The notes beneath the pieces are model-generated. The model saw only the letters and a program-made list of their open reading frames with translations. It had not been told where the DNA came from and searched no databases. From a virus (Duplodnaviria; Heunggongvirae; Uroviricota; Caudoviricetes), in the IMG/VR virus record IMGVR_UViG_3300033119_001367: 64,000 bases of DNA. The stretch is one strand, 5' to 3'. Each line of letters opens with the position of its first letter. Position 1 is the stretch's first letter. Positions 511 through 29,139 of the stretch are shown in pieces. Both the position numbers and the translations under genes were made by a program.

Positions 511-738
511 AATTTAATATATTTCATATAATTCAATTTCTAAAATATCAATAACTACCATCCCCTCTCACCTTCTCCTTTTTTGAACCCAACTTAAATT
601 TGCCTATTTTATATGCAAGTTACAAAACTTTCAATACTTTTTGAAACTTTATTTTCCTTCCTGTTACTTGTTTACTTTGTTTTGGGTGTTGTAAATTATT
701 GTGTGTAGTTTATCTTATTCTGTTATCGGTGGGGATTA

Positions 739-3703: not shown

Positions 3704-3903
3704 TTTTCTGTAAGTTTTTCAAGAGTATAGATTTGATTATTAACTCTTATAATGTTACTAATAAGCTCTTCTGTATAAGCTTTAAATTCTTTATCCATTA
3801 CTAGATGTACATCACAAGTAGTAGTTAATCTGGACATCCACATTTTTTTATCTTCTTTTAGCTTTTTAAGTAAAAGATCATATTTCTTTTTCATATAATT
3901 CAT
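3700..3903 (-). CDS. hypothetical protein (67 aa)
   Basis: ORF track; ATGA-type overlap with its neighbour. Confidence 0.45.
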   Translation of the reverse strand: MNYMKKKYDLLLKKLKEDKKMWMSRLTTTCDVHLVMDKEFKAYTEELISNIIRVNNQIYTLEKLTEK

Positions 3904-4081
3904 TTAAAGCTTTAACAATCATATCAGCATGTTCTTCTTCAAAACACTCACATACTGTTGTTTTCCAGTAATTATCTTCTGGTTTTCCAAAATCTTCAAG
4001 ACCATCTTTGGTATCTACTATTGAATATGCAAAACAACAATGAGCAGAAATACTCTTATCTATTCTTTTAAATCTTTCCAT
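3878..4081 (-). CDS. small protein, YEIY-tail family variant (ends ...LYEKEI)
   Basis: ORF track; C-terminus is a variant of the family motif. Confidence 0.45.
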   Translation of the reverse strand: MERFKRIDKSISAHCCFAYSIVDTKDGLEDFGKPEDNYWKTTVCECFEEEHADMIVKALNELYEKEI

Positions 4082-4083
4082 AA

Positions 4084-4311
4084 TTAATAAATTTCGTAAG
4101 GTTCTTCAAATAATTTAAAACAATGAGCAGGGTAATAACCGTCTTTATCTGTGTGTAAACTACTAAATTGGTTATTTATTGCTATATGTTTGAGTGTAAC
4201 AGGCTCTCCTACTTTACATCTTACTTTTATTTTACTAATCATTCCCCAGTCTTTGTCTTCTATTTTTCTAAACATAACTATTTTCTTACCTATATCTTTT
4301 TTTGTTAACAT
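4084..4311 (-). CDS. small protein of the YEIY-tail family (ends PYEIY)
   Basis: ORF track; its C-terminus is encoded by the 17-mer ATTAATAAATTTCGTAA, which is shared with 11861..12124. Confidence 0.55.
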   Translation of the reverse strand: MLTKKDIGKKIVMFRKIEDKDWGMISKIKVRCKVGEPVTLKHIAINNQFSSLHTDKDGYYPAHCFKLFEEPYEIY

Positions 4312-4312
4312 A

Positions 4313-4546
4313 TTAGTATATTTCAGGTTCTAAAAATTTTTGTCCTTTTACCCATTCCCCATCAACTTGTATAACTTCAATCCAGTTATTACTATTTAAT
4401 TCTCGTAATATACTTTCTACAGAATGTCCACTTACTCTTGACAAGCTTCTGGTATCTTTATAATTAGGATCTATTATGTATATGGCAGTACCTCGCTCTC
4501 CTACTCTAAAAGTAACTCCGTTTATATTATCTTTAGTATATCTCAT
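4313..4546 (-). CDS. small protein of the YEIY-tail family (ends EPEIY)
   Basis: ORF track gives 4313..4555 using TTG as start. An ATG start at MRYTKDN (about 4546) is more likely and overlaps the YEIY stop of the upstream gene. Confidence 0.5.
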   Translation of the reverse strand: MRYTKDNINGVTFRVGERGTAIYIIDPNYKDTRSLSRVSGHSVESILRELNSNNWIEVIQVDGEWVKGQKFLEPEIY

Positions 4547-4826
4547 AATTTTCAAAAATTTGATTATCTAAAAAAAGTGTTTCTGCTGATATAATATCAA
4601 ACCCATCAAAATTAGAACCATAGCAATCATCTCCTATTGGATGAGGAATTGGTCCACCAGTCCTAAAAGTGTAACTAACCTTAGTTCTTTCTTTGTAAGA
4701 TTCCCAATAATCTGTTCTACCAGCAAAAGATAATTCTAATAATTTAGTAACTTTTAAAAATTGTTCCTCAGTTACACAACTAACAGCTACTGGGTGTCTT
4801 TTTAGATATTCTATTGTATATTTCAT
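4533..4826 (-). CDS. small protein of the YEIY-tail family (ends ENYEIY; starts MKYTIEY)
   Basis: ORF track; junction TATGAGATATACTAA is shared with the downstream gene. Confidence 0.55.
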   Translation of the reverse strand: MKYTIEYLKRHPVAVSCVTEEQFLKVTKLLELSFAGRTDYWESYKERTKVSYTFRTGGPIPHPIGDDCYGSNFDGFDIISAETLFLDNQIFENYEIY

Positions 4827-5431
4827 ATATCTACAGCATTTCCAACCTGTTCAGGTTGTTTGTTAATATTTTGTTTGTAAATCTCAATAAAAGGTTGAAA
4901 CATCTTCTCATTTAAATATCTATAGGAATTACCTATAAAACTTATCTGATTTTCTCCTTTTTTAAAAGATAAATCCTTTGCCATTTGAATATGATATTCA
5001 GTAGCATTTATTATATCATCAGCAGTAAAACCTTCATTAATGTACTTGTTAAACAATTGTTTACAATCCAGCTTCTTAACTCTTTTACTTTGAGTACCTT
5101 TAAAGGTCTTATTCTTATAAACAAACATGTTTGTTGCAGGATAAGTAACCCACCACTTCTCAAAATCATTGGTTTTCAACCTCTTAACTAACTCTTTAGG
5201 GTTTCCATCGTCTTCCATATAAGACAATAACTCTTCTCCAGACATAGTAACCTGATTGTCTTCAGTTATTAATTGTTTTCTTAATAACATCTGGTTAATA
5301 GCTCCTATTTTAGGAAGAAGGATAGCATCTGTTATATCTACTTTATCTTTAATAAGTTTTAACAAATACAGTATATCCAGTGAAAATCCTGCATTAAGTA
5401 CTTTTATGTATTTTTCTAATGTTATATTCAT
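4823..5431 (-). CDS. hypothetical protein (202 aa)
   Basis: ORF track. Confidence 0.6.
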   Translation of the reverse strand: MNITLEKYIKVLNAGFSLDILYLLKLIKDKVDITDAILLPKIGAINQMLLRKQLITEDNQVTMSGEELLSYMEDDGNPKELVKRLKTNDFEKWWVTYPATNMFVYKNKTFKGTQSKRVKKLDCKQLFNKYINEGFTADDIINATEYHIQMAKDLSFKKGENQISFIGNSYRYLNEKMFQPFIEIYKQNINKQPEQVGNAVDI

Positions 5432-5661
5432 ATTCCCCCCTTTAATTTTTTTAGTAAATCTTTATCCTCTATTAATACTCCCCATGAAGAACCTATTGGA
5501 AAAGTTTCAAAACCACATTGTTTTAATTGATCAGTAATCCATTCAGCTACTTCTGGTATAGATTTATTTTTCCATATTTCGGGATACTTCTTCATATCTA
5601 TAAGTTGAGATATACATAATGAAAAACATATATCTATTAACTTCTGTTCTTTACTCTTCAT
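5428..5661 (-). CDS. hypothetical protein (77 aa)
   Basis: ORF track. Confidence 0.5.
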   Translation of the reverse strand: MKSKEQKLIDICFSLCISQLIDMKKYPEIWKNKSIPEVAEWITDQLKQCGFETFPIGSSWGVLIEDKDLLKKLKGGI

Positions 5662-5969
5662 TTACAGGTTTTTAGTATTTTTTTCATTTTATCAACTCTA
5701 AATTGTAAGCAATCAATAATTTCAGCTTTACTAGTTACCTCATTGGGATAAGTATGCCAATAGAAATTATCTGTTTTTTCTCTATTTACCCATGCTTTAT
5801 TATATATGCTTACATTAAAATTGGCATCAGTCACAGTACATATTCCCATTCCACAATTATGATTATCAACAATTCTAAGTATCTCTCTATAGTCTTTAAC
5901 AGGTTTTATTTCACGTAAAACTAAGTTATATTTTCTAATTAGTTTTGTTAAGATTTCTTTCTTTGTCAT
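5658..5969 (-). CDS. hypothetical protein (103 aa); paralog of 16266..16643
   Basis: C-terminus IIDCLQFRVDKMKKILKT aligns with AIEALQYRVDRMKELLQK of 16266..16643. Confidence 0.55.
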   Translation of the reverse strand: MTKKEILTKLIRKYNLVLREIKPVKDYREILRIVDNHNCGMGICTVTDANFNVSIYNKAWVNREKTDNFYWHTYPNEVTSKAEIIDCLQFRVDKMKKILKTCK

Positions 5970-6116
5970 AAATTAAACAATTTTATAAATTTCCTTTTAT
6001 AACCACTATTATTGAACCATAAGAGTACTTCTTTTTCAGTAGTAATGTCTATATTTGGTTCAAATACAATAATGGTAGCAACTATAATAGCTATTAATAT
6101 AATTAAAACTAACATG
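5967..6116 (-). CDS. small single-pass membrane protein (~49 aa, MLVLIILIAIIVATIIVF...)
   Basis: Manually found sub-threshold ORF; its TGA stop overlaps the ATG of 5658..5969 (ATGA coupling); hydrophobic N-terminal helix. Confidence 0.4.
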
Positions 6117-6117
6117 G

Positions 6118-6366
6118 TTAAATATTTTTATTCCATAAAATACCAGAAAAGGTTTTTACAGTATGTTTTTGAATAAAGTTAAAATAAGCTCTGGATGGTG
6201 TATAATTATACCCACCATGTAAATTCTTTCTAATACGTTTTTTAGCATCTTGTAATTCACAATTATTACGATTATTAGCAAGTTTTCTAAAAAACCCAGG
6301 TTCGCCTACTTTTGGTTTAGGAAAATCTTTGTAGTTAGAAGATTGATAAACAAGTTGATATTTCAT
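6118..6366 (-). CDS. small protein (82 aa, starts MKYQLVY)
   Basis: ORF track; MKY start typical of the local family. Confidence 0.5.
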   Translation of the reverse strand: MKYQLVYQSSNYKDFPKPKVGEPGFFRKLANNRNNCELQDAKKRIRKNLHGGYNYTPSRAYFNFIQKHTVKTFSGILWNKNI

Positions 6367-6385
6367 GATATTAAGTTTTAATTAT

Positions 6386-6691
6386 TTAATAAATTTCGTA
6401 TGCCCTTATTTGATTCGCTTTTACTGGTCTACCAGCTCTTATATAGTCCTCAATTTCATATAGTGCAGCAGCCCTAACTGTCATTTTACCATGTGATATT
6501 TTATTCTCTTTTGAATTACTTATAGACCAACCATCAAAATTTCCATTCATATTCTTTTCTATACATAAAGCAAACCAATCAAAGTTTCTAGTAAGTTTGT
6601 AAACATACCCTATTGGTATACTTCGCCAAATATCTTCTACTCCAACACAAGTAGTTAATAAGACTATATAATCTCCTTTAATATATTTCAT
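6386..6691 (-). CDS. small protein of the YEIY-tail family (MKYIKGDY...RAYEIY)
   Basis: ORF track; both termini carry the family motifs. Confidence 0.55.
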   Translation of the reverse strand: MKYIKGDYIVLLTTCVGVEDIWRSIPIGYVYKLTRNFDWFALCIEKNMNGNFDGWSISNSKENKISHGKMTVRAAALYEIEDYIRAGRPVKANQIRAYEIY

Positions 6692-6923
6692 ATTCTATGA
6701 TTTCTTTTTGATTATAAACTCTTTTAAAATCTTCAAAGGATATTTCTTTATAACCTTTTTGTTTTCCTAGGAATATACATTTGTTATTACATAAAGGATA
6801 ATGATAATAATAATACTCATCTTCAAAAGAAGAATTAATAGAAAAGTACTTTCTATCATTTAATTTTGTAAAAAATTCATTCATTTCTGAAATATTTCCT
6901 ACTCTTTTAATACAGTATTTCAT
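6678..6923 (-). CDS. small protein of the YEIY-tail family (MKYCIKR...EYEIY)
   Basis: ORF track gives 6678..6986. The likely true start is the internal MKY (about 6923), which overlaps the YEILY stop of 6907..7179. Confidence 0.5.
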   Translation of the reverse strand: MKYCIKRVGNISEMNEFFTKLNDRKYFSINSSFEDEYYYYHYPLCNNKCIFLGKQKGYKEISFEDFKRVYNQKEIIEYEIY

Positions 6924-7179
6924 ATTCATCATTTTTATAATTAAACCCCTCAAAAGATGTTTCATTCCCTGCTTGTATATGTTCAAAATAAGCTATTTCT
7001 TTAGGAGTTGCCAATTTAGCTTCTACAAAAGAAATCAATTCCTGAATTGGACCAGTAGATCCGTCAAAATTTACAATTTTTGCCCATATCTTTTTGTCAT
7101 TATCCTCTAGACAAAAAGCTAAAAATGGATCTACATACTTATAAATAATATGGTAATAAGTACCTTTAATATATTTCAT
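6907..7179 (-). CDS. small protein of the YEIY-tail family (MKYIKGTYY...EYEILY)
   Basis: ORF track; junction TATGAAATATATTAAAG is identical to the one at 6678/6691. Confidence 0.55.
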   Translation of the reverse strand: MKYIKGTYYHIIYKYVDPFLAFCLEDNDKKIWAKIVNFDGSTGPIQELISFVEAKLATPKEIAYFEHIQAGNETSFEGFNYKNDEYEILY

Positions 7180-7420
7180 ATGCTTTATTTATATTTTGAT
7201 GTTGATAAAATTCTTCTTTTGATATAATAATATAATCATGCTCCCTATACCATTCCTCATTACAGTGTAGCCCAATCCCTAGATTAATACACATGCCAGC
7301 ATATAAATTTGATAAAGATTTTATACCTAATAACTCACAAGCCAATTGTCTTAATTCCTCATCAAGACCAATCTGTAAAACTATTTTATTTTTTCCATAA
7401 TACTCTTTAGTATATTTCAT
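7166..7420 (-). CDS. small protein of the YEIY-tail family (MKYTKEYY...KAYEIY)
   Basis: ORF track. Confidence 0.55.
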   Translation of the reverse strand: MKYTKEYYGKNKIVLQIGLDEELRQLACELLGIKSLSNLYAGMCINLGIGLHCNEEWYREHDYIIISKEEFYQHQNINKAYEIY

Positions 7421-7440
7421 AATTATTCAAATTCAATGAT

Positions 7441-7487
7441 AAAAAATTTAAAATAATAGCCCCCACAATTAAGTGAGGGCTATTATT
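7441..7487 (-). terminator. rho-independent terminator after gene 7500..7970
   Basis: Perfect 11-bp stem AATAATAGCCC/GGGCTATTATT (7452-7487), followed on the minus strand by TTTTAAATTTTTT. Confidence 0.6.
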
Positions 7488-7499
7488 AAAAATGGAAGA

Positions 7500-7970
7500 T
7501 TATGCAAACAAATCTTTAATGTTTTGCATAGAAGCAACAAACTTTTGCTCCCTGCTTAGGTTCTCTTCCAAAATCCTCTTAGCTTCGGTCAACTTAGCCA
7601 GTTTAGATTCAAAAGTAGTTTCCCTGTACTGAGCCATGATTTCATCCTGCCATTGCTTTAAAGAATGACCACCTTCAGTAAAAGCTTTAATAGGAGTTAA
7701 GCTATCTACTTCCTGAAATACAGGGGTAAATTCTGCATAAGCAGCCGCTTTCCTTGTTATGAATGCATAAGCATCCATTAAACGAGCAGGATCCTTAATA
7801 TCGGAAATTATCCCGAATGCTCCCAAAGGGGTGGTTATCTTAGCAGCCCTCTCTTTATCTCCTTTAAGTTTTTTAATTTGATCATTTACCTGCTGAAGTA
7901 AATTTGGAACTTCTTCCAATGTAAATTGTGTTGCAGTTGCTACTTCCATGTTTTTTGCTTTTGTTGCCAT
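7500..7970 (-). CDS. hypothetical protein (156 aa), GC-richer and flanked by its own terminator
   Basis: ORF track; base composition differs from its neighbours and a terminator lies immediately downstream. Confidence 0.6.
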   Translation of the reverse strand: MATKAKNMEVATATQFTLEEVPNLLQQVNDQIKKLKGDKERAAKITTPLGAFGIISDIKDPARLMDAYAFITRKAAAYAEFTPVFQEVDSLTPIKAFTEGGHSLKQWQDEIMAQYRETTFESKLAKLTEAKRILEENLSREQKFVASMQNIKDLFA

Positions 7971-7988
7971 TTTGTTTGTTTTTAATTA

Positions 7989-8240
7989 TTAATAATAAAA
8001 TTCTTGATTTAAATTTTCACCTAATATAATTAGGTCTTCTCCTATTTTGTAATTAGAATTCAGTCCCCAATTATCCCACTCAACTTCATATGTATCATCA
8101 TTATTATTATAACCATCTATAGTCCCTTTTATATTTAAAGGATTTTTACTGGTTGGTTTTAATGATCCACTATTTACCCATCTAGATGTAGGGTTTAACA
8201 TTACTCTTGTACCAATTGGGATTTCATTTTCTTTTTTCAT
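7989..8240 (-). CDS. small protein (83 aa, ends QEFYY)
   Basis: ORF track; variant of the aromatic tail. Confidence 0.5.
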   Translation of the reverse strand: MKKENEIPIGTRVMLNPTSRWVNSGSLKPTSKNPLNIKGTIDGYNNNDDTYEVEWDNWGLNSNYKIGEDLIILGENLNQEFYY

Positions 8241-8255
8241 ATATGGTTTGTTTGT

Positions 8256-8444
8256 TTAATATATTTCTTCGTAAGGAATTTCTTTAACTTCTTCATAGTA
8301 ATCCTCAAAACTTCCATAACTACCAAAATTCCTTTCGGGAAAAGTATCTTCTGTTATATAACTTCCTTTTATATAGCTGAAAAGAATTTCTTCAGAATCT
8401 TCCGAATAGTAATCCCAGCTTTTTAATACTTTATAATATTTCAT
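8256..8444 (-). CDS. small protein of the YEIY-tail family (MKYYKV...YEEIY)
   Basis: ORF track. Confidence 0.5.
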   Translation of the reverse strand: MKYYKVLKSWDYYSEDSEEILFSYIKGSYITEDTFPERNFGSYGSFEDYYEEVKEIPYEEIY

Positions 8445-8617
8445 TTTAGTCTTTTTGTTTTAAAACCATATAGAATCTTACCTGATTTAGGTGGACTATT
8501 ACTATAATATGGGACTACATAGTTTCTTCCCATTATAGGGTTTAATATTAATAGCCTTACATCTTTATCCAATCTTACTTCTTCTGAACAAAGATAGTGA
8601 AATTTAGTAGATTTCAT
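8441..8617 (-). CDS. small protein (~58 aa, MKSTKFHYLC...) of the same junction type
   Basis: Manually found sub-threshold ORF. Its start overlaps the NTYEIY stop of 8604..8876 (TATGAAATCTACTAA) and its TGA overlaps the ATG of 8256..8444. Confidence 0.45.
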   Translation of the reverse strand: MKSTKFHYLCSEEVRLDKDVRLLILNPIMGRNYVVPYYSNSPPKSGKILYGFKTKRLK

Positions 8618-8876
8618 ATGTATTTGAATTTATTGTGTAATCTTTTATATGATCCATAGAAAAACCATAACCACTGATTAACCCATTTAGTCCTATTTCA
8701 GTTGTTTTTAATCCTTCTATGATGCCTTTCCAAGGATATATTATACCTTTTTTTGGATTTTTATCGGATAATTCAGAAGACCACATACTTGGTTCTTTAT
8801 GTATAGTTATAGTATCACCTATTTTAAATTGATTTTCTTTCATATAATCTGTTTGTAAAGTTATACCTTTTTTCAT
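8604..8876 (-). CDS. small protein of the YEIY-tail family (ends NTYEIY)
   Basis: ORF track. Confidence 0.55.
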   Translation of the reverse strand: MKKGITLQTDYMKENQFKIGDTITIHKEPSMWSSELSDKNPKKGIIYPWKGIIEGLKTTEIGLNGLISGYGFSMDHIKDYTINSNTYEIY

Positions 8877-9000
8877 CCTCTATAAGAGGTGGATGTTTTC
8901 TTAATAACCTGTTTAATTCTGCTATTTTCTCTTTATCAGCAGGAAATTTAGCTTGTTCCGCATAGATTAGCTTCTTTATATTCTGTCTCTCTCCCATAAG

Positions 9001-9186
9001 TTAATATATTTCTTCTTCTAATAATACTATTTCAAAAGCATTTTTATTTACAGGATATTGTTTTTCTAAAAGCTTAGCCCATGTATAACAAGAAAACCCA
9101 CTATTCGTATTTAAATCCTCAACTTCATATATTTTCCCTATTATTGCTCGATTATTCCAAGCATAATTACATTTTATATAATACAT
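9001..9186 (-). CDS. small protein of the YEIY-tail family (ends EEEIY)
   Basis: ORF track. Confidence 0.5.
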   Translation of the reverse strand: MYYIKCNYAWNNRAIIGKIYEVEDLNTNSGFSCYTWAKLLEKQYPVNKNAFEIVLLEEEIY

Positions 9187-9188
9187 AA

Positions 9189-9503
9189 TTAATAAATTTC
9201 TTCTTCAAAAATGGGTTTCTCAATATATTTACCTGCTTTCTTACACAATTCAAACCAAACTATCTCCTGATAAGTAGCAAGTCTGTATTTAGTGACTTTT
9301 GAAAAATTTGCAGAAGAGCCTAATAATTTATCTCTAACACCTAAATGCATACAATGTTCTAAATTATCAGCTTTAAATATATAAGGGTAATGTGTCCAAT
9401 GCTCTGTATAATAATATTGGTCTGGTATTAAATCAGTATAGTTCATAAATAGGCTCTTTAAATTCAATATATTTGTTTTTTTTTCTGGCACATTTGTAAC
9501 CAT
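9189..9503 (-). CDS. small protein of the YEIY-tail family (ends FEEEIY); tandem paralog of 9464..9706
   Basis: Both share MxYTDLIPxxYYYT near the N-terminus; the true start is probably the internal MNYTDLIP. Confidence 0.5.
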   Translation of the reverse strand: MVTNVPEKKTNILNLKSLFMNYTDLIPDQYYYTEHWTHYPYIFKADNLEHCMHLGVRDKLLGSSANFSKVTKYRLATYQEIVWFELCKKAGKYIEKPIFEEEIY

Positions 9504-9706
9504 TGTATTTCAAAAGGTGTAGCAATTCTAAATACTACATCAGTTCTTTCAAAACAACCACTTGCCTTATAAAATTTGTTATGTGTTAAATCTATATTAT
9601 CAGACTTATTTGGAGTATATTGTAATATATATTTATAACCTTCACCATCTACCCAATCAGTATAATAATACTTTCCAGGAATTAAATCAGTATATTTCAT
9701 ATGCAT
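9464..9706 (-). CDS. small protein (80 aa, MKYTDLIPGKYYYTD...KQIY)
   Basis: ORF track; paralog of 9189..9503. Confidence 0.5.
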   Translation of the reverse strand: MHMKYTDLIPGKYYYTDWVDGEGYKYILQYTPNKSDNIDLTHNKFYKASGCFERTDVVFRIATPFEIQWLQMCQKKKQIY

Positions 9707-9935
9707 ACTCTCTAAAAGGTAACAAATCTTGTTTTCTTACCATGTAATAATTCTCACCAGGATAATCTGGTTCTTCTATACAGTAATACTCTTCATCACC
9801 ATATGTTGCTTCACCATATATCTTATATTTTTCTTTACGCCAATGCCTGTAAGCATTATCTGTTCTAATATCCCAGGTAACACATCTATAAGGTAAAAAT
9901 GTATCTATTGGTATATTAATAATATTCTGGCTCAT
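9687..9935 (-). CDS. small protein of the YEIY-tail family (ends YAYEIY)
   Basis: ORF track. Confidence 0.5.
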   Translation of the reverse strand: MSQNIINIPIDTFLPYRCVTWDIRTDNAYRHWRKEKYKIYGEATYGDEEYYCIEEPDYPGENYYMVRKQDLLPFREYAYEIY

Positions 9936-10200
9936 ATTTTATATTTTTTATGTATGTAATACCTTTTTTAAAACCTTGTATCTCATAAGCTGTAGCAGGT
10001 CTTACAGCTTGTCCCCATATACCTCTTCCACAATCTGTCCAAATAATAGGAGAAGTTTCGTTTATTATTATTTCCTCAACTGTTCTTATTTTAACAATAA
10101 GACCTTCTTTATAACCTGTACCTCCTTTTAAAAGCTTTCCTTTATCTGTATCTGAGTTATTAAACCCAGGTAAACATACAACTATATCATTTATTTGCAT
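9916..10200 (-). CDS. small protein (94 aa, ends EPEYY)
   Basis: ORF track. Confidence 0.5.
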   Translation of the reverse strand: MQINDIVVCLPGFNNSDTDKGKLLKGGTGYKEGLIVKIRTVEEIIINETSPIIWTDCGRGIWGQAVRPATAYEIQGFKKGITYIKNIKYEPEYY

Positions 10201-10250
10201 AATTTTAAAATTTAAAAACCCTCCCCTTCCTAATTAAAAGAAGGAGAGGG
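10201..10250 (-). terminator. rho-independent terminator after 10262..10588
   Basis: Stem CCCTCCCCTTC/GAAGGAGAGGG (one mismatch), followed on the minus strand by TTTTTAAATTTTAAAATT. Confidence 0.5.
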
Positions 10251-10261
10251 TACACTGAAAA

Positions 10262-10588
10262 CTAACAAACCTTATCCAAAACCGAATCTACAACCAAAAA
10301 TTCACCTTGTATATGAAACAAGATAGCACCTCTTTTAGTAATTATCATTCCATTAGTAGGTGTGGCAAAAGAAACAGTACATGTTTCCAAACCTAATGCT
10401 GCTAAAGGATATATAAATACAGGTAATCCCCTATCAAAACCGTAATGAGGTTTAATACTCTCACAAATTTTCTCAATTTTTAGTTTGAGATATAATTTGG
10501 GATTAATAGGGTTAATAAAGAACTTCTTAATCCCTTCTAAAGGATTTACTTCTTTACCTTCTGTAAAGTTGAAAAACATTGTTTTCAT
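10262..10588 (-). CDS. hypothetical protein (108 aa)
   Basis: ORF track. Confidence 0.55.
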   Translation of the reverse strand: MKTMFFNFTEGKEVNPLEGIKKFFINPINPKLYLKLKIEKICESIKPHYGFDRGLPVFIYPLAALGLETCTVSFATPTNGMIITKRGAILFHIQGEFLVVDSVLDKVC

Positions 10589-10841
10589 TTTTATGTTAAT
10601 TTATTGGTGAAATGATAAAAATCCCCTCACCAAATGATGAGGGGTTTAATCCCAGTTTCGTAGGAATTACTTCGCAAATTAGGCAGCTATTCTCATAGCT
10701 GACCTTTTGAAGGAGATTACTCTGCCTTTTAGGTTTACTGATAATCTCTCCTAGTCGTAATATTAGAATCAAGTGCCAAATGTCCCCCAATTAATTTGCC
10801 TATATCTTACTCAAGGATATAGGACTTGGCAATACTAGCCA

Positions 10842-10890
10842 TAGCTATTGTGGAGGACAGGGGAGTCGAACCCCTTTCTTCTAATCACCT
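10842..10890 (-). other. tRNA 3'-half-like fragment (T-arm + acceptor 3' strand); possible attP-type core or tRNA pseudogene
   Basis: The minus-strand sense reads ...AGAAGAAAGGGGTTCGACTCCCCTGTCCTCCA: a canonical T-stem/loop (AGGGG-TTCGACT-CCCCT) plus a 7-nt acceptor 3' strand. No complementary 5' acceptor strand (GGAGGAC) exists within 90 nt upstream. Confidence 0.35.
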
Positions 10891-11098
10891 CTCTAGAAGT
10901 GTCTGCGATTACCATTTATTTTAAGCTTCCTGCATAGCAGGTTCAGCTATTACTTTATAATTTACAGAAGATACTCTTAATTCTCTACGCAATTCTTCCC
11001 CTTGTTCAAGAGCTATTGCTTCAGTATGATAAGGAGTTCTTGAATCATAAATACTTTCCCCATCTCTTTTATCTACTATTTTGAAAAAATGTTCCATA

Positions 11099-11293
11099 TC
11101 AAATAGATTTAGTTATTAATAATTGTTGAACTCTGTACACTCTATTTTGTTTATCTACCCATAAAGATCTGCAATTCAAATGATTTATACCATTTCCATA
11201 TATATTACGAAAATGTTTTAAATGTAATTGATTAGCTTTCTTGATGTTAATAATTTTAAAATGTCTGATGTACCAAAGTTGTAAGTTTCTCAT
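11099..11293 (-). CDS. hypothetical protein (64 aa)
   Basis: ORF track; weak support. Confidence 0.35.
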   Translation of the reverse strand: MRNLQLWYIRHFKIINIKKANQLHLKHFRNIYGNGINHLNCRSLWVDKQNRVYRVQQLLITKSI

Positions 11294-11370
11294 AATTTAT
11301 ATTTTAAAAAGGAGAGAGAATTTCTTCCCTCCCCTACCACCTGAACCTATATTATTTTATATATATTTGT

Positions 11371-11577
11371 TTATTGAGGATCTAAGTGATTAAAATTATA
11401 TACAATCTCCTGTCCAGTGTTATCGAAATATCTGGCATGAGACATACTTTTATCTGGTCTACGGGCTATGATTTTATCAGCCCCTGCTTCAGATGTACAT
11501 CTCATGGATTCATTGTAAATTTTGTGTTTTGAGGGAGTAGTATCCCAAAAGCTGATTATCAAACGATTTTTTGGCAT
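11371..11577 (-). CDS. hypothetical protein (68 aa)
   Basis: ORF track. Confidence 0.45.
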   Translation of the reverse strand: MPKNRLIISFWDTTPSKHKIYNESMRCTSEAGADKIIARRPDKSMSHARYFDNTGQEIVYNFNHLDPQ

Positions 11578-11587
11578 GGTAAATGTT

Positions 11588-11761
11588 TTAGATTCGTGAT
11601 TGTAAAGTTGTTATTTCTTTTTTAATCCTTTCTGTATCTTTATCAGTTAAAGGAACTGGACCTTCTTTAGAAGGTTTTTGACCTGTTTTTAACTGGTTTT
11701 GCAGATAATGTAGAGCTGTTTTTCTTCTTGAAAAAACTCCACCTGATGTTCTTAATGACAT
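11588..11761 (-). CDS. small basic protein (~57 aa, MSLRTSGGVFSRRKTALHYLQNQLKTGQKP...)
   Basis: Manually found sub-threshold ORF in an otherwise empty 280-bp gap; coordinates approximate. Confidence 0.3.
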   Translation of the reverse strand: MSLRTSGGVFSRRKTALHYLQNQLKTGQKPSKEGPVPLTDKDTERIKKEITTLQSRI

Positions 11762-11860
11762 AGCTTCCTAGTTTTTAGTTAATTAAAATTGGTTTATGTA
11801 TATGTGACTCTACTTCCCAAACATCACATTCAGGACAGTAAATAAGATCTGTTATCATAA

Positions 11861-12124
11861 TTAATAAATTTCGTAATCAGAATTTAACAATTGAATATTA
11901 GTTACACTATTGGTTTCTATAGCATATGGAGTCCCATCACTAACAACCCAACTGTATTTGTATCCAAGTTTCTCATTACAATCAGAACCATTTTTAAGGT
12001 TTTGTACTATATAGTAATTATCTTCTTCAAATACTATCCTGGCATCACTTATTACTGTATTTTCTATTTTACAAGTTATGTGTTTGCCATCCATTTCTGT
12101 TGTTAAACTTTTAATATAGCTCAT
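11861..12124 (-). CDS. small protein of the YEIY-tail family (ends SDYEIY); tandem paralog of 12111..12380
   Basis: Alignable along its whole length with 12111..12380 (..ARIVFEEDNYYIVQNL.. versus ..AVIVYEDLRYYILQDV..; NIQLLN versus NIQIIN). Confidence 0.55.
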   Translation of the reverse strand: MSYIKSLTTEMDGKHITCKIENTVISDARIVFEEDNYYIVQNLKNGSDCNEKLGYKYSWVVSDGTPYAIETNSVTNIQLLNSDYEIY

Positions 12125-12380
12125 ATTCTTGATTTATAATTTGAATGTTACTTGTTTGATTTCTGAATAAATCCCCTTTATTACCTCTTCCTACACACCA
12201 AGATAGTTTTTTACCAAATTTACTTGCTTTTATAGTAGGGGGGAAAGAACCACTATGAACATCTTGTAAGATATAATATCTTAAATCCTCATATACAATC
12301 ACTGCGTTATTTATAGGTTCACCTCCTATAATACAGTTTATACTCTTACCATTTATATCTGGGGTTAATTGTGTTATCAT
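12111..12380 (-). CDS. small protein of the YEIY-tail family (ends QEYELY)
   Basis: ORF track; paralog of 11861..12124. Confidence 0.55.
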   Translation of the reverse strand: MITQLTPDINGKSINCIIGGEPINNAVIVYEDLRYYILQDVHSGSFPPTIKASKFGKKLSWCVGRGNKGDLFRNQTSNIQIINQEYELY

Positions 12381-12604
12381 AACTCTATTTTATAAGTTGA
12401 ATTTTTTGTTTTAAATACAAATCCCTTATCATCTTTAGATATTATTTCAGTTACAGGAGATGAACCAAATGAGCCAATAAAATAACTTTCACCTATAATA
12501 GGCTCAGGATCATATATTTTCGACTCTCTTTTATATCCTATATTAATACCATTAGGATGATTTTCACCATATCGGTGAGCTTCTATTTTAGTTAGTATTG
12601 CCAT
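12377..12604 (-). CDS. hypothetical protein (75 aa)
   Basis: ORF track. Confidence 0.5.
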   Translation of the reverse strand: MAILTKIEAHRYGENHPNGINIGYKRESKIYDPEPIIGESYFIGSFGSSPVTEIISKDDKGFVFKTKNSTYKIEL

Positions 12605-12609
12605 AGTAT

Positions 12610-12873
12610 TTAATATTGAGGTTCTTGTAATAATAATTTACTCCATAAACTTATCATATATTGAGCAAGTTCATGTTTTTCAATAGGTGTAAAATCCGTA
12701 TTATCATGATCAACCTCTATTGTACCATCTTCATCTTCTAATTTAGGTTCCATCATATTATCATACCCTTCATGTAAATCACCATTTTCATCAATACCAA
12801 TAACATCACAATTGGGTGTTATGAATCTACCAGTTGAAAACTGATATGTTTCATCATCAAATTTTTTTAACAT
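12610..12873 (-). CDS. small acidic protein (87 aa, ends LLQEPQY)
   Basis: ORF track. Confidence 0.5.
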   Translation of the reverse strand: MLKKFDDETYQFSTGRFITPNCDVIGIDENGDLHEGYDNMMEPKLEDEDGTIEVDHDNTDFTPIEKHELAQYMISLWSKLLLQEPQY

Positions 12874-12890
12874 AATAGTTTGTTTTTGTT

Positions 12891-13205
12891 TTAATAAATT
12901 TCAGGTGATAAAATTTCTATTGGTATATACTGTGGACCAGATTCTCCTGTTTTAGCAGCCCAATACCCTTGTTTATAAACAAGTCCTATTCCTCTTCCCC
13001 ATACACAAAGAGTATCTTCTTTCTCATCATATTGAAAAAGACTTCCATTCTCATTGTTACTAGGAATACACATTTTAAAATGAGGATCACTACGATCTCT
13101 TCCTTTATCAAAACTTGCAAACCCTCCTTCTAAACAATTAACTTTTTCTTCTTCTATGTATCTTTCTCTTAAAATCTTAAGTAATTTATCAATTTTCTGT
13201 TGCAT
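12891..13205 (-). CDS. small protein of the YEIY-tail family (ends LSPEIY)
   Basis: ORF track. Confidence 0.55.
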   Translation of the reverse strand: MQQKIDKLLKILRERYIEEEKVNCLEGGFASFDKGRDRSDPHFKMCIPSNNENGSLFQYDEKEDTLCVWGRGIGLVYKQGYWAAKTGESGPQYIPIEILSPEIY

Positions 13206-19100: not shown

Positions 19101-19137
19101 TATATAAAAGAAAGAGAGTGATAGAGTCACTCTCTCT
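19101..19137 (-). terminator. rho-independent terminator after 19145..19606
   Basis: Stem AGAGAGTGA/TCACTCTCT, followed on the minus strand by TTCTTTTATATATA. Confidence 0.55.
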
Positions 19138-19144
19138 CAATTAA

Positions 19145-20260: not shown

Positions 20261-20611
20261 ATGAGTGAATTAATTGTAGAACCTCTTCAGGAAAATGAAA
20301 ATTTAAAAAGAGAGATTAGAAAATTAGAAGGATTAATCCTTTCCTTCAGGATGAAGATTAAAGAGGAATGGATGGAAATGCCTTACAAATACAATGAAGA
20401 GTTCTTAAAGGAGTATGATGAGTTCTTTGGTATAGTAAAAGAGAGACATGGTTATAAAACCGAAGTATTATACCCCTTAACTCCAAAGCAATGTATGGAA
20501 AGATATAATGCAGAACATACTGATTCTCAGATATTTACAAGAGAATTGAGTAAAGAAGAACAAATTATGTATGATATAATAGTGAAAAAAATTGAGGAAT
20601 ATGGAAAATAA
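20261..20611 (+). CDS. hypothetical protein (116 aa)
   Basis: ORF track. Confidence 0.55.
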   Translation: MSELIVEPLQENENLKREIRKLEGLILSFRMKIKEEWMEMPYKYNEEFLKEYDEFFGIVKERHGYKTEVLYPLTPKQCMERYNAEHTDSQIFTRELSKEEQIMYDIIVKKIEEYGK

Positions 20612-21131
20612 ATACTTTACATCATCTATAGAAGATGAAATATGGAAAGATATTCCTGGTTATGAAGAATATTATGAAGTATCTAATACTGGACTTATAA
20701 GAAGAAAAGCTTACATAATGAAATGTAGATTAACTAATGATGGTTATCCAGCAATTACTTTATGCGGAGGAGGAAAGCAATTATCTAAGACTATACATAG
20801 AATAGTTGCAGAAGTATTTTTAGAGAATCCTGAGAATAAAGCACAGGTAAATCATAAAGATGGAATAAAAGCAAATGCTATGGTTTCAAATTTAGAATGG
20901 GTAACACCTTCTGAGAATATAAATCATGCATTGAATTTGGGATTAAAAGACAAAACTTGGCAGGATGGGGAGAAAAATATAAACTCTAAATTAACAAAAG
21001 AACAAGTTTTAGATATAAGAGAAAAGTGTAAAACTATGAAAATTTCTGAAGTTCATAAAAACTTTTATCCAAATATGAATTACAATACTATTTATGGAAT
21101 TAAAACAAAAAGACTATGGAAGACAATTTAA
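20592..21131 (+). CDS. HNH homing endonuclease (NUMOD4 + HNH_3)
   Basis: WKDIPGYEEYYEVSNTGLIRR (NUMOD4) and HRIVAEVF..NHKDGIKANAMVSNLEWVTPSENINHA (HNH_3 signature). Confidence 0.7.
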   Translation: MRNMENKYFTSSIEDEIWKDIPGYEEYYEVSNTGLIRRKAYIMKCRLTNDGYPAITLCGGGKQLSKTIHRIVAEVFLENPENKAQVNHKDGIKANAMVSNLEWVTPSENINHALNLGLKDKTWQDGEKNINSKLTKEQVLDIREKCKTMKISEVHKNFYPNMNYNTIYGIKTKRLWKTI

Positions 21132-22859: not shown

Positions 22860-23201
22860 ATGCATAATGATGTAATTAGAACCGACTGTAAATTAGGAAG
22901 TCCTGGTCAATTACCTCCAGGTACTTCTGGAATAACTACTAAAGATCCACAGGAGGTAAAACTTTTATCAGTACTAGAAAGATTAAAAGAAGAGAATAAC
23001 TATACAGAAGATGTTATTGCTTCCATAAAGAGTAGGTTAAATACTATTTATGTATCACAGGAAGAAGTGGGAGATCCAGAAAAAATACCTGAGTTAGTAG
23101 TTAATTGTGCTGTTGATGAGTTTAATTGGCAGCTTTTTAGGTTGTATAAAAATAATAAGGCTTTGGCAGAGATTCACGCACACTTAAAGCAGATTATATA
23201 A
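22860..23201 (+). CDS. hypothetical protein (113 aa)
   Basis: ORF track. Confidence 0.5.
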   Translation: MHNDVIRTDCKLGSPGQLPPGTSGITTKDPQEVKLLSVLERLKEENNYTEDVIASIKSRLNTIYVSQEEVGDPEKIPELVVNCAVDEFNWQLFRLYKNNKALAEIHAHLKQII

Positions 23202-23734
23202 TGGCACACCCAGAACAAGCAGTTTTTTGTAATTCAGTTAAGAATAAATTTCCACAGAAATTTGTTAATGCAGATGTATTGGATATTGGCTCTTTGGATA
23301 TAAATGGTAATAATAGATACTTGTTCTCAAACTGTACTTATACAGGAGTTGATATAGGGGCAGGAAAGAATGTGGATGTGGTATCTAAGGGACATGAGTT
23401 TAAACCTGGTAAACAGTATGATATTGTAATCTCAACAGAGTGTTTTGAACATGATATGTACTGGAAAGAAACTATACAGAACTGTATAGATTTAACTAAG
23501 TCAGGGGGATTGTTTATGTTTACTTGTGCTACAACTGGTAGACAGGAACATGGTACAACCAGAACCACACCACAGGACTCCCCCTTTACTCATATCCAGT
23601 TCAGTGACTATTATATGAACCTGACTGAATATGATGTAAGGCAGATTCCAGGCTTTGACAACTCATTCACAGAATTTAAATTTTCAACAAACCAGAATAC
23701 AAAGGACTTGTATTTCTATGGTATAAAACAATAA
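23201..23734 (+). CDS. putative class I SAM-dependent methyltransferase
   Basis: Motif I-like VDIGAGKNVDVV, acidic post-I YDIVISTECFEH, and motif III-like GGLFMFTC. Confidence 0.45.
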   Translation: MAHPEQAVFCNSVKNKFPQKFVNADVLDIGSLDINGNNRYLFSNCTYTGVDIGAGKNVDVVSKGHEFKPGKQYDIVISTECFEHDMYWKETIQNCIDLTKSGGLFMFTCATTGRQEHGTTRTTPQDSPFTHIQFSDYYMNLTEYDVRQIPGFDNSFTEFKFSTNQNTKDLYFYGIKQ

Positions 23735-26040: not shown

Positions 26041-29000
26041 ATGCAAACAACTACAAATATCTGGTTTAAAGACCAGGTAGAACCTATACTAACTGATAAT
26101 CCAGCAGATAAGGAGACTTATATAGAATACTGGAAAAAAGAGAAAGACAGGTGTATGAATGGGTTTTACTTGGCTGATGGGGCAGTTCATGTTCCCGGCA
26201 GACTGTATTTTCATACGGTCTATTGGAAGATTGCAATGTATGTAGAATTACCTAATAAGAAAAAGGTAAGGAAAATTGAAACACCTTTATTAAGGGATAT
26301 AGATTGGGACATATTTAATGACCTGGAAAGATGTAATGAAGAAGGTAAATTCTATCCATTAGTAGGTAGCAGGGACTTTGGTAAAGCACTTATAAATACA
26401 GCCACTCTATATACAAATAATGGAGAAATATTAATTGGTAATGCTAAAATAGGTGATAAGATATTTGGGGATGATGGTAAATTAACAACTATTACTGGGG
26501 TTTACCCACAAGGATTAATAGACTTATATAAAATTACCCTAAGAGATGGAAGGGTTTTATATTCTTGTGATAATCATATATGGAGAGTTTGGAATAGTTC
26601 ATCCCGTAAATATGAGGATAAAAATCTTTCTTCTATAAAAACTGACTACCTGATAAATAGGAAAAAATCTTATAAAAATAGTAAAGGTTTGGCATATAGG
26701 TATTTTATACCAAATAATAAACCTGTTGAATATTCTGAGAATTATTTACCAATAAATCCTTATTTTTTAGGATTATGGTTAGGAGATGGTAATAAAAGAA
26801 CTTTAGGAATAACTACAATAGATAAAGAAATTTCAGATTTTGTATATACATATGCAGAAGAAAATAATTTACAAGTAAGGAAACATGGTATTTCTTATAA
26901 TATAAGTAATGGAATGAAAGGTGGACTAAGAAATTCTCTCTTATCTAAATTTCAAGAGCTAGATTTAATAAATAATAAACATATACCTAATTGTTATTTT
27001 TATTCCTCTGTAGAGCAAAGAATGGAATTATTAAGAGGAATAATGGATACAGATGGTTGTTGTGGGAAAAATGGAGTAATAGAATTTTGTACAACAGATG
27101 TAAATATTGCAAATGGTTTTTATAGATTAGTAAGAAGTTTAGGTATTCAGGTAACTATCAAAAAGACAAAAAATAGTTATAAAAATAAAGGTGTAGTAAC
27201 TTTAGCTAAAGATAAATATAGGTTTAATCTTATGACAGATAAGCCAATATTCAAACTGCCAAGAAAGTTAAATAATATAGGTAAGTATAGAGGGGATAAG
27301 ACATCTATAGTAAATATAGAGTATTTTGGTAAAGAACAGGCAACTTGTATTACAGTAGATAATAAGTCAAAATGTTTTTTAACTGATGGATATACAGTAA
27401 CACATAATTCAGTTATTGCAGGATCTTGTGCTGGACATCAATATACATTTTATAGTAATAGTGAGTGTGTAATATCTGGTGGAGCAGCTAATTATATCAA
27501 ACTAGCTACGGATAAGATAGAAGATGGGTTGCTTAATATTCACCCAATATTTAAAAAGCAAAGACTTGTATCGGACTGGAAGAAAGAGATTAAAGCTGGT
27601 TGGAAAGATAAATCATCTAACTTACCAAATCCAAAATCTTCCAATTCAAAAATACTTGTCAGGAACTATCAGGCTGGTACTGATACTATGGCTGCTAATG
27701 GTACTAGACCTTCTTTTCACCTTATTGATGAGATTGGTACTCTACCTAATCTTATTGGTTGTATAAAAGATAGTGATGGTTGCTGGTGGTCTGGTGGAGG
27801 TAATAAACCATCTTGTTTGGTTATGTTATGTGGAACTGGTGGTGATATGGAAGTTGGTGCTGAAGCAGCGGAAGTTTTCTACCATCCGTATTCCTATAAC
27901 ATGCTTGAGTTTGAGAATGAATGGGAAGGTGGTGGAAAGATAGGAAGATTTATAGCTGCTACCAGAGCTAAAATGGCTTATAAGGAACCAAAGACTCTGG
28001 CTGAATATCTTGGTATAGACCATCCAGATTTACAAAATATAACTATACTGGTTTCTAATGAAGAAAGAGCCTTAAGAGAGTGGTGGGAACCAGAGTATGA
28101 TAAAGCTGTTAAATCAGGTAACTCAAAAACAATTCTGAAGTTTAAAGCCTACTGGCCCCTGAAACCTTCAGATAGCTTCTTGGTTTTAACACATAATGAT
28201 TTTAATGTAGAGGCTGCTAAAGCTCAACAAACAAGGTTAAGAGATTTAGGTGTAACAGGGACACCTGTTAAGATATTCCATAACGGAGAAAAAATAGTAC
28301 ATGAATTCTCTGATAAACCATTTATAACTGAGTTTCCTGTTAAGACTCAAGATACTGATGCTCCTATTCAGATATGGGAGTTTCCCGTGGAACACCCTCC
28401 TTTTGGATTGTATGTAGCTGGGGTTGACCCTTACAGACAGGGTGAAGCAGAATACTCAGATTCACTTGGAGTAGTTTATATTTATAAAAGAATGCATGGT
28501 ATTTCTTCAGAGAAATATCAGAATATGTTTGTAGCTTGCTATGCTGCAAGACCACAGAGTAAAGAGAAATGGAATGAGAATGCCAGGAATCTGATTAAGT
28601 ATTATAATGCCAGAACCCTGTGTGAGAATGATGAGATGTCTTTTATTGACTTTATGATTGCCAGAAATGATGGGCATTATTTAGAAGACCAGCCAGAATG
28701 GTTAAAAGAATATGTACCAAATACTACTGTAAAGAGAAAGAAAGGAATACATAGGTCTGCTACCGCAATTAGAAATTTTCTGGATGGTACATTCAAATCC
28801 TACCTGGATGAAATAATAGATATAGAGAAAGATGAAAATGGAAGTATTATAAAAGAAACTACAGGTGTATCAAGAATACCTGACCCAATGCTTCTGGAAG
28901 AAATTACTAAATTCTCTAAAGACCCTAAGCATAAAGTAAATACAGATAGGGTAATTGCTGCTGAATTAGCAGTTGCTTTGGCTTATAAATTAGACCCTGT

Positions 29001-29139
29001 TATAGGTGCAGTAGGGAGTGACAAAACTGACCCAAGAATGCAATCTTATTATGCTAAAAACCCAATTAAAGGAAATTCAAAAATCTTTACTGGATCAACA
29101 AATTTTACAGGAAAGAAACAATTAAAAATATTCGGATGA
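26041..29139 (+). CDS. terL: terminase large subunit interrupted by an intein (1032 aa precursor; about 691 aa of exteins)
   Basis: Split Walker A GSRDFGK|...|SVIAG; Walker B SFHLIDE; nuclease-domain motif LYVAGVDPYRQG...SLGVVYIY. An intein-like insert lies between K115 and S457. Confidence 0.8.
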   Translation: MQTTTNIWFKDQVEPILTDNPADKETYIEYWKKEKDRCMNGFYLADGAVHVPGRLYFHTVYWKIAMYVELPNKKKVRKIETPLLRDIDWDIFNDLERCNEEGKFYPLVGSRDFGKALINTATLYTNNGEILIGNAKIGDKIFGDDGKLTTITGVYPQGLIDLYKITLRDGRVLYSCDNHIWRVWNSSSRKYEDKNLSSIKTDYLINRKKSYKNSKGLAYRYFIPNNKPVEYSENYLPINPYFLGLWLGDGNKRTLGITTIDKEISDFVYTYAEENNLQVRKHGISYNISNGMKGGLRNSLLSKFQELDLINNKHIPNCYFYSSVEQRMELLRGIMDTDGCCGKNGVIEFCTTDVNIANGFYRLVRSLGIQVTIKKTKNSYKNKGVVTLAKDKYRFNLMTDKPIFKLPRKLNNIGKYRGDKTSIVNIEYFGKEQATCITVDNKSKCFLTDGYTVTHNSVIAGSCAGHQYTFYSNSECVISGGAANYIKLATDKIEDGLLNIHPIFKKQRLVSDWKKEIKAGWKDKSSNLPNPKSSNSKILVRNYQAGTDTMAANGTRPSFHLIDEIGTLPNLIGCIKDSDGCWWSGGGNKPSCLVMLCGTGGDMEVGAEAAEVFYHPYSYNMLEFENEWEGGGKIGRFIAATRAKMAYKEPKTLAEYLGIDHPDLQNITILVSNEERALREWWEPEYDKAVKSGNSKTILKFKAYWPLKPSDSFLVLTHNDFNVEAAKAQQTRLRDLGVTGTPVKIFHNGEKIVHEFSDKPFITEFPVKTQDTDAPIQIWEFPVEHPPFGLYVAGVDPYRQGEAEYSDSLGVVYIYKRMHGISSEKYQNMFVACYAARPQSKEKWNENARNLIKYYNARTLCENDEMSFIDFMIARNDGHYLEDQPEWLKEYVPNTTVKRKKGIHRSATAIRNFLDGTFKSYLDEIIDIEKDENGSIIKETTGVSRIPDPMLLEEITKFSKDPKHKVNTDRVIAAELAVALAYKLDPVIGAVGSDKTDPRMQSYYAKNPIKGNSKIFTGSTNFTGKKQLKIFG
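26386..27408 (+). mobile_element. class 3 intein (341 aa) with LAGLIDADG homing-endonuclease domain, inserted in the terL P-loop
   Basis: Starts ALINTATLYT (Ala1). Block B GRVLYSCDNHIW places Trp at B:12. LAGLIDADG motifs LGLWLGDGN and LRGIMDTDGCC. Block F ATCITVD places Cys at F:4. Block G TVTHN|S places Thr at G:5 and ends in HN with +1 Ser. Splicing restores the Walker A GSRDFGKS. Confidence 0.7.

Follow-up and report, generated by a model that had tools for sequence, protein, structure and literature searches.

The subject of this analysis is a 64,000-nucleotide (nt) stretch of viral DNA, IMG/VR record IMGVR_UViG_3300033119_001367 (hereafter the window), and in particular an array of small minus-strand genes whose products share a C-terminal tetrapeptide, Tyr-Glu-Ile-Tyr (YEIY), or a close variant of it, here called the tail. 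The source is identified as a crAss-like phage by its major capsid protein (33578-35128), which aligns over nearly its full length with the Pfam family Crass_capsid (PF23898; E = 2.7e-26); its G+C content is ~30%. Minus-strand genes occupy 1-20 kb and the plus-strand structural module runs from ~26 kb onward, with a tRNA-Cys gene immediately before the minus-strand block of small genes that holds the array. Relatives are encoded on hundreds of IMG/VR contigs of 90-120 kb; against 50,697 phage records the array DNA gave no megablast match, and protein searches of the same records returned remote capsid matches only. Seven loci were studied closely: the window; locus L081, whose phage has a capsid protein 97% identical to that of the window; and L082-L086, reached via homologues of array proteins and then the contigs encoding them. 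The window and the six related loci, each of the latter with 12-25 tails, yielded a set of 127 tails, and 116 tailed proteins were used for clustering and overlap counts.

Thirteen window open reading frames (ORFs) of at least 40 amino acids (aa) end in Glu-Ile-Tyr (EIY), all of them minus-strand genes within 4084-13205, as an initial annotation of this DNA had counted; every other C-terminal tripeptide in the window occurs twice at most. Six further genes, named like all window genes here by their lower coordinate, have variant ends: ELY (12111), EILY (6907), EYY (9916), FYY (7989), QIY (9464) and PQY (12610). An origin in composition, whereby EIY ends would arise randomly from AT-biased codons and an abundance of Tyr, Ile and Glu, might be entertained for a region of 28% G+C enriched in Ile, Lys, Glu, Tyr and Asn, but can be practically discounted in the face of the controls: in 20,000 residue shuffles of 38 genes, EIY ends averaged 0.027 and never exceeded 2, and in second-order Markov simulations of the region they averaged 0.022 and never exceeded 1. 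Internal EIY tripeptides number only 4 in the 11,450 residues of the window array and its closest relative, and no YEIY-type tail was found on the plus-strand structural genes of the window. With 13 observed against 0.02-0.03 expected, the EIY ends are far beyond chance.

What recurs at the gene junctions is the peptide and not, as had been proposed, one conserved cassette of DNA. The 127 tails read Tyr (102), Pro (12) or Glu (9), then Glu (127), Ile (97) or Leu (24), Tyr (127) and stop, with Ile, Leu, Tyr and stop codons all variable: Ile is written ATA (51), ATT (31) or ATC (15); Leu TTA (11), CTA (4), CTT (4), TTG (3) or CTC (2); the final Tyr TAT (78) or TAC (49); and the stop TAA (102), TGA (18) or TAG (7). 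Across 45 homologous pairs compared between loci, only synonymous changes were seen at the Glu (position -2; 4 changes) and at the final Tyr (position 0; 12 changes), and the stop codon was swapped 10 times; positions -4 to -8 each show 14-22 non-synonymous and 3-10 synonymous changes, and the sequence 3' of the tail stop shows no conservation. This substitution pattern indicates that the amino acids of the tail, rather than the DNA or RNA, are the target of purifying selection. The motif is invariably terminal, none of the 127 tails carrying even one extra residue after it. A single locus mixes YEIY, YQIY, YPIY, YSIY and YKIY, so that position -2 is tolerant and the core is Y-x-I-Y-COOH; from the sequences compared, the motif of the wider family can be written Y-x-[I/L]-[Y/F/W]-COOH, of which Y-E-[I/L]-Y-COOH is the window form. 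At the DNA level, the 15-mer TATGAAATATATTAA, thought to be shared by five junctions, is exact at 6678 and 7166 (also at 514) and inexact at 4533, 6907 and 8604; these three overlapping junctions, with those at 9687 and 12111, are variants with one to three changes or a 3-nt insertion. The stop context TTAATAWATTTC, put at about 15 occurrences, was found 10 times (0.25 expected), and a repeated 17-mer was confirmed, lying within an exact 21-mer at 4079-4099 and 11856-11876.

The codon pair TAT-GAA (Tyr-Glu) contains an ATG, and a next gene starting there reads Met-Lys-Tyr-Ile/Thr (MKY...) with a 14-nt overlap; the overlapping YEIY-stop/MKY junctions described in the initial annotation do exist. 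Such a start lies exactly 14 nt inside 53 of the 116 tailed genes, and 2 nt past the stop in 16 more; the 14-nt overlap is absent from 63 of the 116, 20 tails are followed by a gap of at least 30 nt, and the spacing from tail to next gene ranges from -14 to above +30. Among tails without a long downstream ORF using the ATG, the Tyr at -3 is TAT in 22 of 43 (51%, against an 81% background; p = 7e-6), and since TAT is rarer where the internal ATG is unused, the embedded ATG seems to be avoided when unwanted, implying that ribosomes use it when it is present. A gene that starts 14 nt inside the previous one is probably translationally coupled to it. Production of a polyprotein by +1 frameshifting at the overlap was considered and rejected, a tRNA-Tyr being unable to re-pair after a +1 slip on UAU-UAA. 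An N-terminal MKY is found mainly where the start overlaps a tail; in one domain family described below, termed RLAT, the N-terminal strand (MK.IKG.YY) is part of the domain and also compatible with an overlap reading. Because codons and stops vary, Glu and the final Tyr change only synonymously and 63 of 116 tails lack the overlap, the peptide is taken to be the selected unit, and both the DNA repeat at the junction and the MKY starts appear to be largely its consequence.

The window and L081 are separated by 11 or more events of gene gain, loss, duplication or replacement in ~10 kb, and the tailed genes common to both are 35-84% identical at 97% capsid identity, bearing out the fast divergence previously ascribed to the array proteins. 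Four indels (insertions or deletions) between the two were examined at base level, two present only in the window (genes 4533 and 9001) and two only in L081, and all proved to be whole genes bounded by junction direct repeats (Table 1); the direct repeats of the region are mostly junction repeats. The idea that the junction supports recombination and duplication is upheld by these indels, with the repeat itself maintained, in this reconstruction, via selection on the peptide. Direct repeats of 12-18 nt at gene boundaries would act as microhomology, by which whole genes could be duplicated, deleted or swapped with their neighbours undamaged. Relics of lost members comprise a start-less frame ending ...NLNNYEIY before 7166, a remnant at 514-561 and a frameshifted member in L081; the last (L081 7909-8173) belongs to the RLAT family, is probably pseudogenised, and still ends ...VYEIY, overlapping the next start. 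Three consecutive untailed genes (window 5658-6366, L081 9296-10004) are 100% identical at the protein level and the genes flanking them 58-89%, a sign of recent recombination within the array.

The array had been taken for about 20 paralogous genes, which holds for two clear pairs and, at profile level, for the five to seven window genes with a domain in common, the rest being unrelated by sequence. Both tandem duplicates proposed were confirmed by BLASTP (11861/12111, E = 4e-18; 9189/9464, E = 4e-11), and no other window pair gave a significant match. After trimming of the first 5 and last 6 residues, phmmer sorted the 116 tailed proteins into 63 clusters. Iterative profiles unite ~40 of the 116 in the RLAT family, named for an interior (R)LAT..E(I/F) helix-cap motif, with window members 6386, 6907, 9189, 9464 and 9916; no similarity to it was found for 4533/7166, 11861/12111 or 12891. 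An exhaustive profile search returned 213 family representatives, among which stand-alone members (84-120 aa) nearly all end Y-x-I-aromatic (YEIY, YELY, YQIY, YSIY, YPIF, YEIF, IEIW). In proteins of 370-1180 aa (P0033, P0035, P0036, P0039, P0040, P0052) the domain is repeated in tandem, with 2-7 copies each, and internal copies are tail-less, from which it follows that the domain folds without the tail; Pfam searches of RLAT-family proteins, fused ones included, gave no match. It would seem that this uncharacterised domain has two alternative architectures, one as small genes in tandem and the other as multi-domain fusions. An AlphaFold model of 6386 predicts an SH3-like barrel plus a helix (overall mean pLDDT 81.6), and with residues 97-101 falling below a pLDDT of 50 the tail is predicted to be disordered. 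Tailed proteins are mostly acidic and hydrophilic; their median pI is 5.7, that of untailed small ORFs 8.9.

Table 1. Features of the tailed-gene array, in window coordinates unless marked L081
Feature	Position	Strand	Length	C-terminus	Remarks
Tailed gene	12891..13205	minus	104 aa	SPEIY	First after tRNA-Cys; L081 orthologue 68% identical, tail kept
Small gene, degenerate tail	12610..12873	minus	87 aa	EPQY	
Tailed gene	12111..12380	minus	89 aa	EYELY	Tandem paralogue of 11861; tail overlaps 11861 start by 14 nt
Tailed gene	11861..12124	minus	87 aa	DYEIY	Tyr is TAC; no overlapping start
Tailed gene, RLAT..EI domain family	9916..10200	minus	94 aa	EPEYY	
Tailed gene	9687..9935	minus	82 aa	AYEIY	Tail overlaps 9464 start (MKYTDL)
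Disrupted RLAT-family gene	9433..9700	minus		KKKQIY	+1 insertion in A9 run; read product stops at 9464
Tailed gene, RLAT family	9189..9446	minus	85 aa	EEEIY	Paralogue of 9464
Tailed gene	9001..9186	minus	61 aa	EEEIY	Window only, missing in L081; GAAGAAGAAATWTATTAA repeats on both sides
Tailed gene	8604..8876	minus	90 aa	TYEIY	Tail overlaps 8441 start (MKSTKF)
Tailed gene	8256..8444	minus	62 aa	YEEIY	
Small gene, variant tail	7989..8240	minus	83 aa	QEFYY	Kept in L081 and L082
Untailed conserved helical protein	7500..7970	minus	156 aa		
Hairpin and T-run, terminator-like	7452..7487	minus			3' of the 156-aa gene; compensatory changes preserve it in L081
Start-less open frame	7407..7499	minus	30 codons	NLNNYEIY	Overlaps 7166 start
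Tailed gene	7166..7420	minus	84 aa	AYEIY	Tail overlaps 6907 start; different genes here in L081
Tailed gene, RLAT family	6907..7179	minus	90 aa	EYEILY	
Tailed gene	6678..6923	minus	81 aa	EYEIY	Tail overlaps 6386 start
Tailed gene, RLAT family	6386..6691	minus	101 aa	AYEIY	Tyr is TAC; structure modelled
Tailed gene	4533..4826	minus	97 aa	NYEIY	Window only, missing in L081; ATGARATATAC direct repeats flank
Tailed gene	4313..4546	minus	77 aa	EPEIY	
Tailed gene	4084..4311	minus	75 aa	PYEIY	Tyr is TAC
Remnant tailed ORF	514..561	minus	15 codons	MVVIDILEIELYEIY	Followed by stop; exact junction 15-mer; outside the range first annotated
Indel, whole gene	L081 5813-6055				L081 only; repeat TTATGAAATCTACTRA
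Indel, whole gene	L081 8643-8978				L081 only; repeat TATGAAATWTAYTAA

Among these genes, the QIY end of 9464, initially listed as a tail variant, is a frameshift product: the ancestral ...IEFKEPIYELY tail remains open in the next frame to 9433, where it overlaps the 9189 start, and the homologue P0034 has that tail intact, the 1-nt insertion shortening the 9464 protein by 9 codons. For the A9 insertion (9464-9500), three origins can be considered: recent mutation, an error in sequencing the homopolymer, or slippage at a site from which both products are made. Every one of the seven closely studied loci has the untailed 156-aa protein within its array, as do several loci recovered via the tail pattern alone; the protein is 54-93% identical among loci, far more conserved than its neighbours, and its model, a helical bundle, matched no PDB fold, nor did its sequence find a match. 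Read-through of its stop into the in-frame ...NNYEIY frame was rejected, the L081 frame being shut after two codons, and the 7407-7499 frame is probably a relic of a lost tailed gene. The remnant at 514-561 lies upstream of a gene running off the window start, beyond which a further run, of seven tailed genes, is present in L081 (17974-19659). The small-gene block is rich in terminator-like hairpins (16 against 5.2 expected; for example 10218-10251, 10623-10644, 11313-11334 and 19110-19138, minus strand), which divide the array into runs, some lying just 17-31 nt ahead of the next start codon. Outside the array, an HNH/NUMOD4 homing endonuclease and an S-adenosylmethionine-dependent methyltransferase are encoded directly past the point of transcription divergence (20592-21131 and 23201-23734, plus strand), and a 1032-aa protein heading the structural module (26041-29139, plus strand) has a LAGLIDADG homing-endonuclease domain at residues 315-386, which suggests an intein or inserted endonuclease.

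Spread was assessed with a pattern of two junctions 199-229 nt apart, which recovered 10 stretches in IMG/VR, including contigs of 91, 98, 164, 175 and 180 kb, and 22 stretches in metagenomes, with runs of tails in most; the same pattern gave 0 matches in 185,579 bacterial and archaeal genomes (596 Gb). To judge from these matches, the trait is clade-wide in environmental crAss-like phages and specific to phages.

Several known systems resemble parts of this arrangement. The closest parallel for the tag is provided by the internal proteins of phage T4, a diverse set of small proteins with a common terminal capsid targeting sequence (CTS), encoded at a variable locus and thought to act in anti-defence (PMC3012670); in both cases diverse small phage proteins have only a short terminal peptide in common. 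The CTS, however, is N-terminal, comprises ~10 residues, is cleaved at (L/I)xE by the prohead protease and directs packaging, whereas the array tag is the last four residues, apparently needs a free C-terminus, is not an N-terminal cleaved tag, and is borne by genes on the strand opposite the structural module. For gene turnover the closest parallel is the PeSLs of T4-type phages, repeated motifs bordering small non-essential genes that act as sites of insertion, deletion and replacement between close relatives (PMC2839356, PMC4122927); gene gain and loss bounded by repeats is likewise seen at the four indels of the array. PeSLs are nevertheless non-coding, consisting of promoter and stem-loop, whereas the array repeat is coding, 12-18 nt long, constrained by protein and without a hairpin; promoter-like sites were not enriched (127 against 114 expected), in a simple sigma-70 scan that is uninformative in AT-rich sequence. 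Integrons likewise feature same-orientation small unrelated genes, mostly annotated without function, whose boundaries carry a recurrent element and whose cassettes come and go rapidly, but the array junctions lack an attC-like inverted repeat, their boundary element lies inside coding sequence, and no integrase or recombinase domain was found in the neighbouring proteins scanned, which did not cover every ORF; the array cassettes appear to turn over by short-homology rather than site-specific recombination.

C-terminal motifs read via a free carboxylate include PDZ ligands, ssrA-type degrons, SSB tips and the clamp-binding QL[SD]LF tails of polymerases. The array tail resembles these in consisting of 4-5 residues at the extreme C-terminus of a flexible tail, with an acidic residue and a terminal aromatic, and differs in being carried by dozens of different proteins per genome. 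NYEIY parallels QLDLF of the sliding-clamp consensus position by position, a lead only; that consensus has Gln at -4, aliphatic residues at -3 and -1, a small or acidic residue at -2 and a terminal Phe, and position -4 of the tails is Asn, Ser, Glu or Asp, with Gln in only 6 of 127. The E-[I/L]-Y end formally fits the PDZ class III consensus ([D/E]-x-hydrophobic-COOH), likewise a lead only, and the phage proteins scanned yielded no PDZ domain. The ssrA ClpX degron (ALAA) has no counterpart, no tail ending in LAA and 127 of 127 ending in an aromatic residue, and the DDDIPF of SSB tips is absent from the tails.

Two explanations would place the conserved element in the nucleic acid. Were the 12-15-nt junction a DNA recombination cassette, a selected site for gene shuffling comparable to PeSLs or integron attC sites, with the YEIY and MKY peptides as by-products of translation, the four exact whole-gene indels with junction direct repeats on either side, the two tandem duplications, the at least 11 gene-content differences in 10 kb between phages with 97% identical capsids and the dominance of junction repeats among the region's direct repeats would all be accounted for; this is nonetheless improbable, as the amino acids are fixed despite free variation at synonymous sites and in the stop codon, Leu variants are written in five codons, and distant relatives keep Y-x-I-aromatic with other DNA. 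The variable spacing to the next gene, the lack of a hairpin or promoter at the junction and the lack of a recombinase beside the array, among scanned proteins that did not include every ORF, argue likewise. Slightly less probable again is a translation signal in the RNA, conserved for termination-reinitiation or start selection in a host group making little use of Shine-Dalgarno pairing: starts at recurrent positions (14 nt inside the tailed gene or 2 nt past its stop), avoidance of TAT where the internal ATG is unused and a mild enrichment of GAA and TAA speak for it, but the distance from tail to start is variable, with 20 gaps of at least 30 nt, synonymous and stop-codon changes are tolerated, and the constraint tracks the amino acid, as in the exchange of Ile and Leu via unrelated codons.

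A third explanation accepts the peptide but makes it an inherited part of one fold, all tailed proteins being diverged paralogues in which the tail forms a closing or oligomerisation strand rather than a tag; in a variant, the tail docks on the SH3-like domain of a sister protein to build non-covalent chains like the fused multi-domain homologues. The growth of the RLAT family under iterative profiles to ~40 of 116 proteins, its 213 representatives with nearly all single-domain ones tailed, the N-terminus that also belongs to the domain and the existence of covalently fused tandem versions make this the most credible of the rivals, yet it is still unlikely. The tail is predicted to be disordered, internal copies in fused proteins lack it, 63 clusters persist after the termini are trimmed, and the 4533/7166 and 11861 families have no RLAT similarity; that nothing ever follows the motif in 127 cases points to recognition of a free carboxylate rather than packing.

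On balance, the tail probably serves as a shared tag for docking or addressing, recognised by one partner, with the junction architecture following from it; that the tail is itself functional is the best-supported part of the initial annotation. The array would constitute a fast-turnover set of small, mostly acidic, soluble proteins, probably early and host-directed, each bearing the same C-terminal short linear motif, which would be read through its free aromatic carboxylate by a single partner. This partner might belong to the host, as a hub or an unfoldase, or be a protein of the phage or the packaging machinery, and any member deprived of its tail would be inactive. A requirement-type tag (docking, targeting or packaging) is preferred over a pure degron, because the simplest account of uniform purifying selection over dozens of proteins is that a protein losing its tail also loses its function. 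Several observations weigh against a docking tag. No reader domain was found in the phage proteins scanned, and tail disorder was seen in one modelled family only. No meaningful Pfam or PADLOC match was obtained for 118 tailed proteins, nor anything from PHROGs for 10 window members, so that these scans link the tailed proteins to no pathway. About a third of the proteins have one domain in common and further homologues may have gone undetected, so the conservation could be partly inherited family structure. Some bias exists at the DNA level (GAA 92% against 79% background, TAA 80% against 64%, and an enriched final TAC), and the nucleic-acid level is therefore not wholly neutral.

More tentatively, and with less conviction than attaches to the docking tag, Y-x-I-aromatic-COOH may be the label of a previously unknown phage tagging system, in which a dedicated reader would give dozens of unrelated effectors a common fate and genes would have evolved around the tag so that new effectors plug in at the junctions. 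Candidate readers are the 156-aa array protein, which lies near tails in several independently found loci and is a candidate only; the capsid interior, through co-injection; and an AAA+ machine or hub, of host or phage origin. Directly downstream of the tailed array, L084 (15404-16321) and L122 (3134-3868) encode a 305-aa AAA-family ATPase, not seen in the other fetched flanks; present beside the arrays in only 2 fetched loci, this phage ATPase is not their regular companion, which speaks against it as the reader. No description of a YEIY tail, or of early phage proteins sharing a conserved C-terminal motif, emerged from full-text literature searches.

The host-takeover and anti-defence functions of phages that still await explanation reside mainly in small early proteins, which usually provide no handle by which to study them. 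Here, more than 100 proteins of one phage clade carry the same four-residue tag under what appears from substitution patterns to be strong purifying selection, so the tail flags candidate members of a protein set by sequence alone and would provide an experimental entry, as a synthetic peptide with which to fish for the reader or as a tag transferable to reporters. The analysis also adds an uncharacterised, predicted SH3-like domain family with 213 database representatives, in tailed single-domain and large tandem-repeat forms. As an evolutionary example, the array would illustrate how a protein constraint makes a DNA repeat and the repeat in turn makes genes modular, a single codon pair (TAT-GAA) serving both to close one protein and to open the following one.

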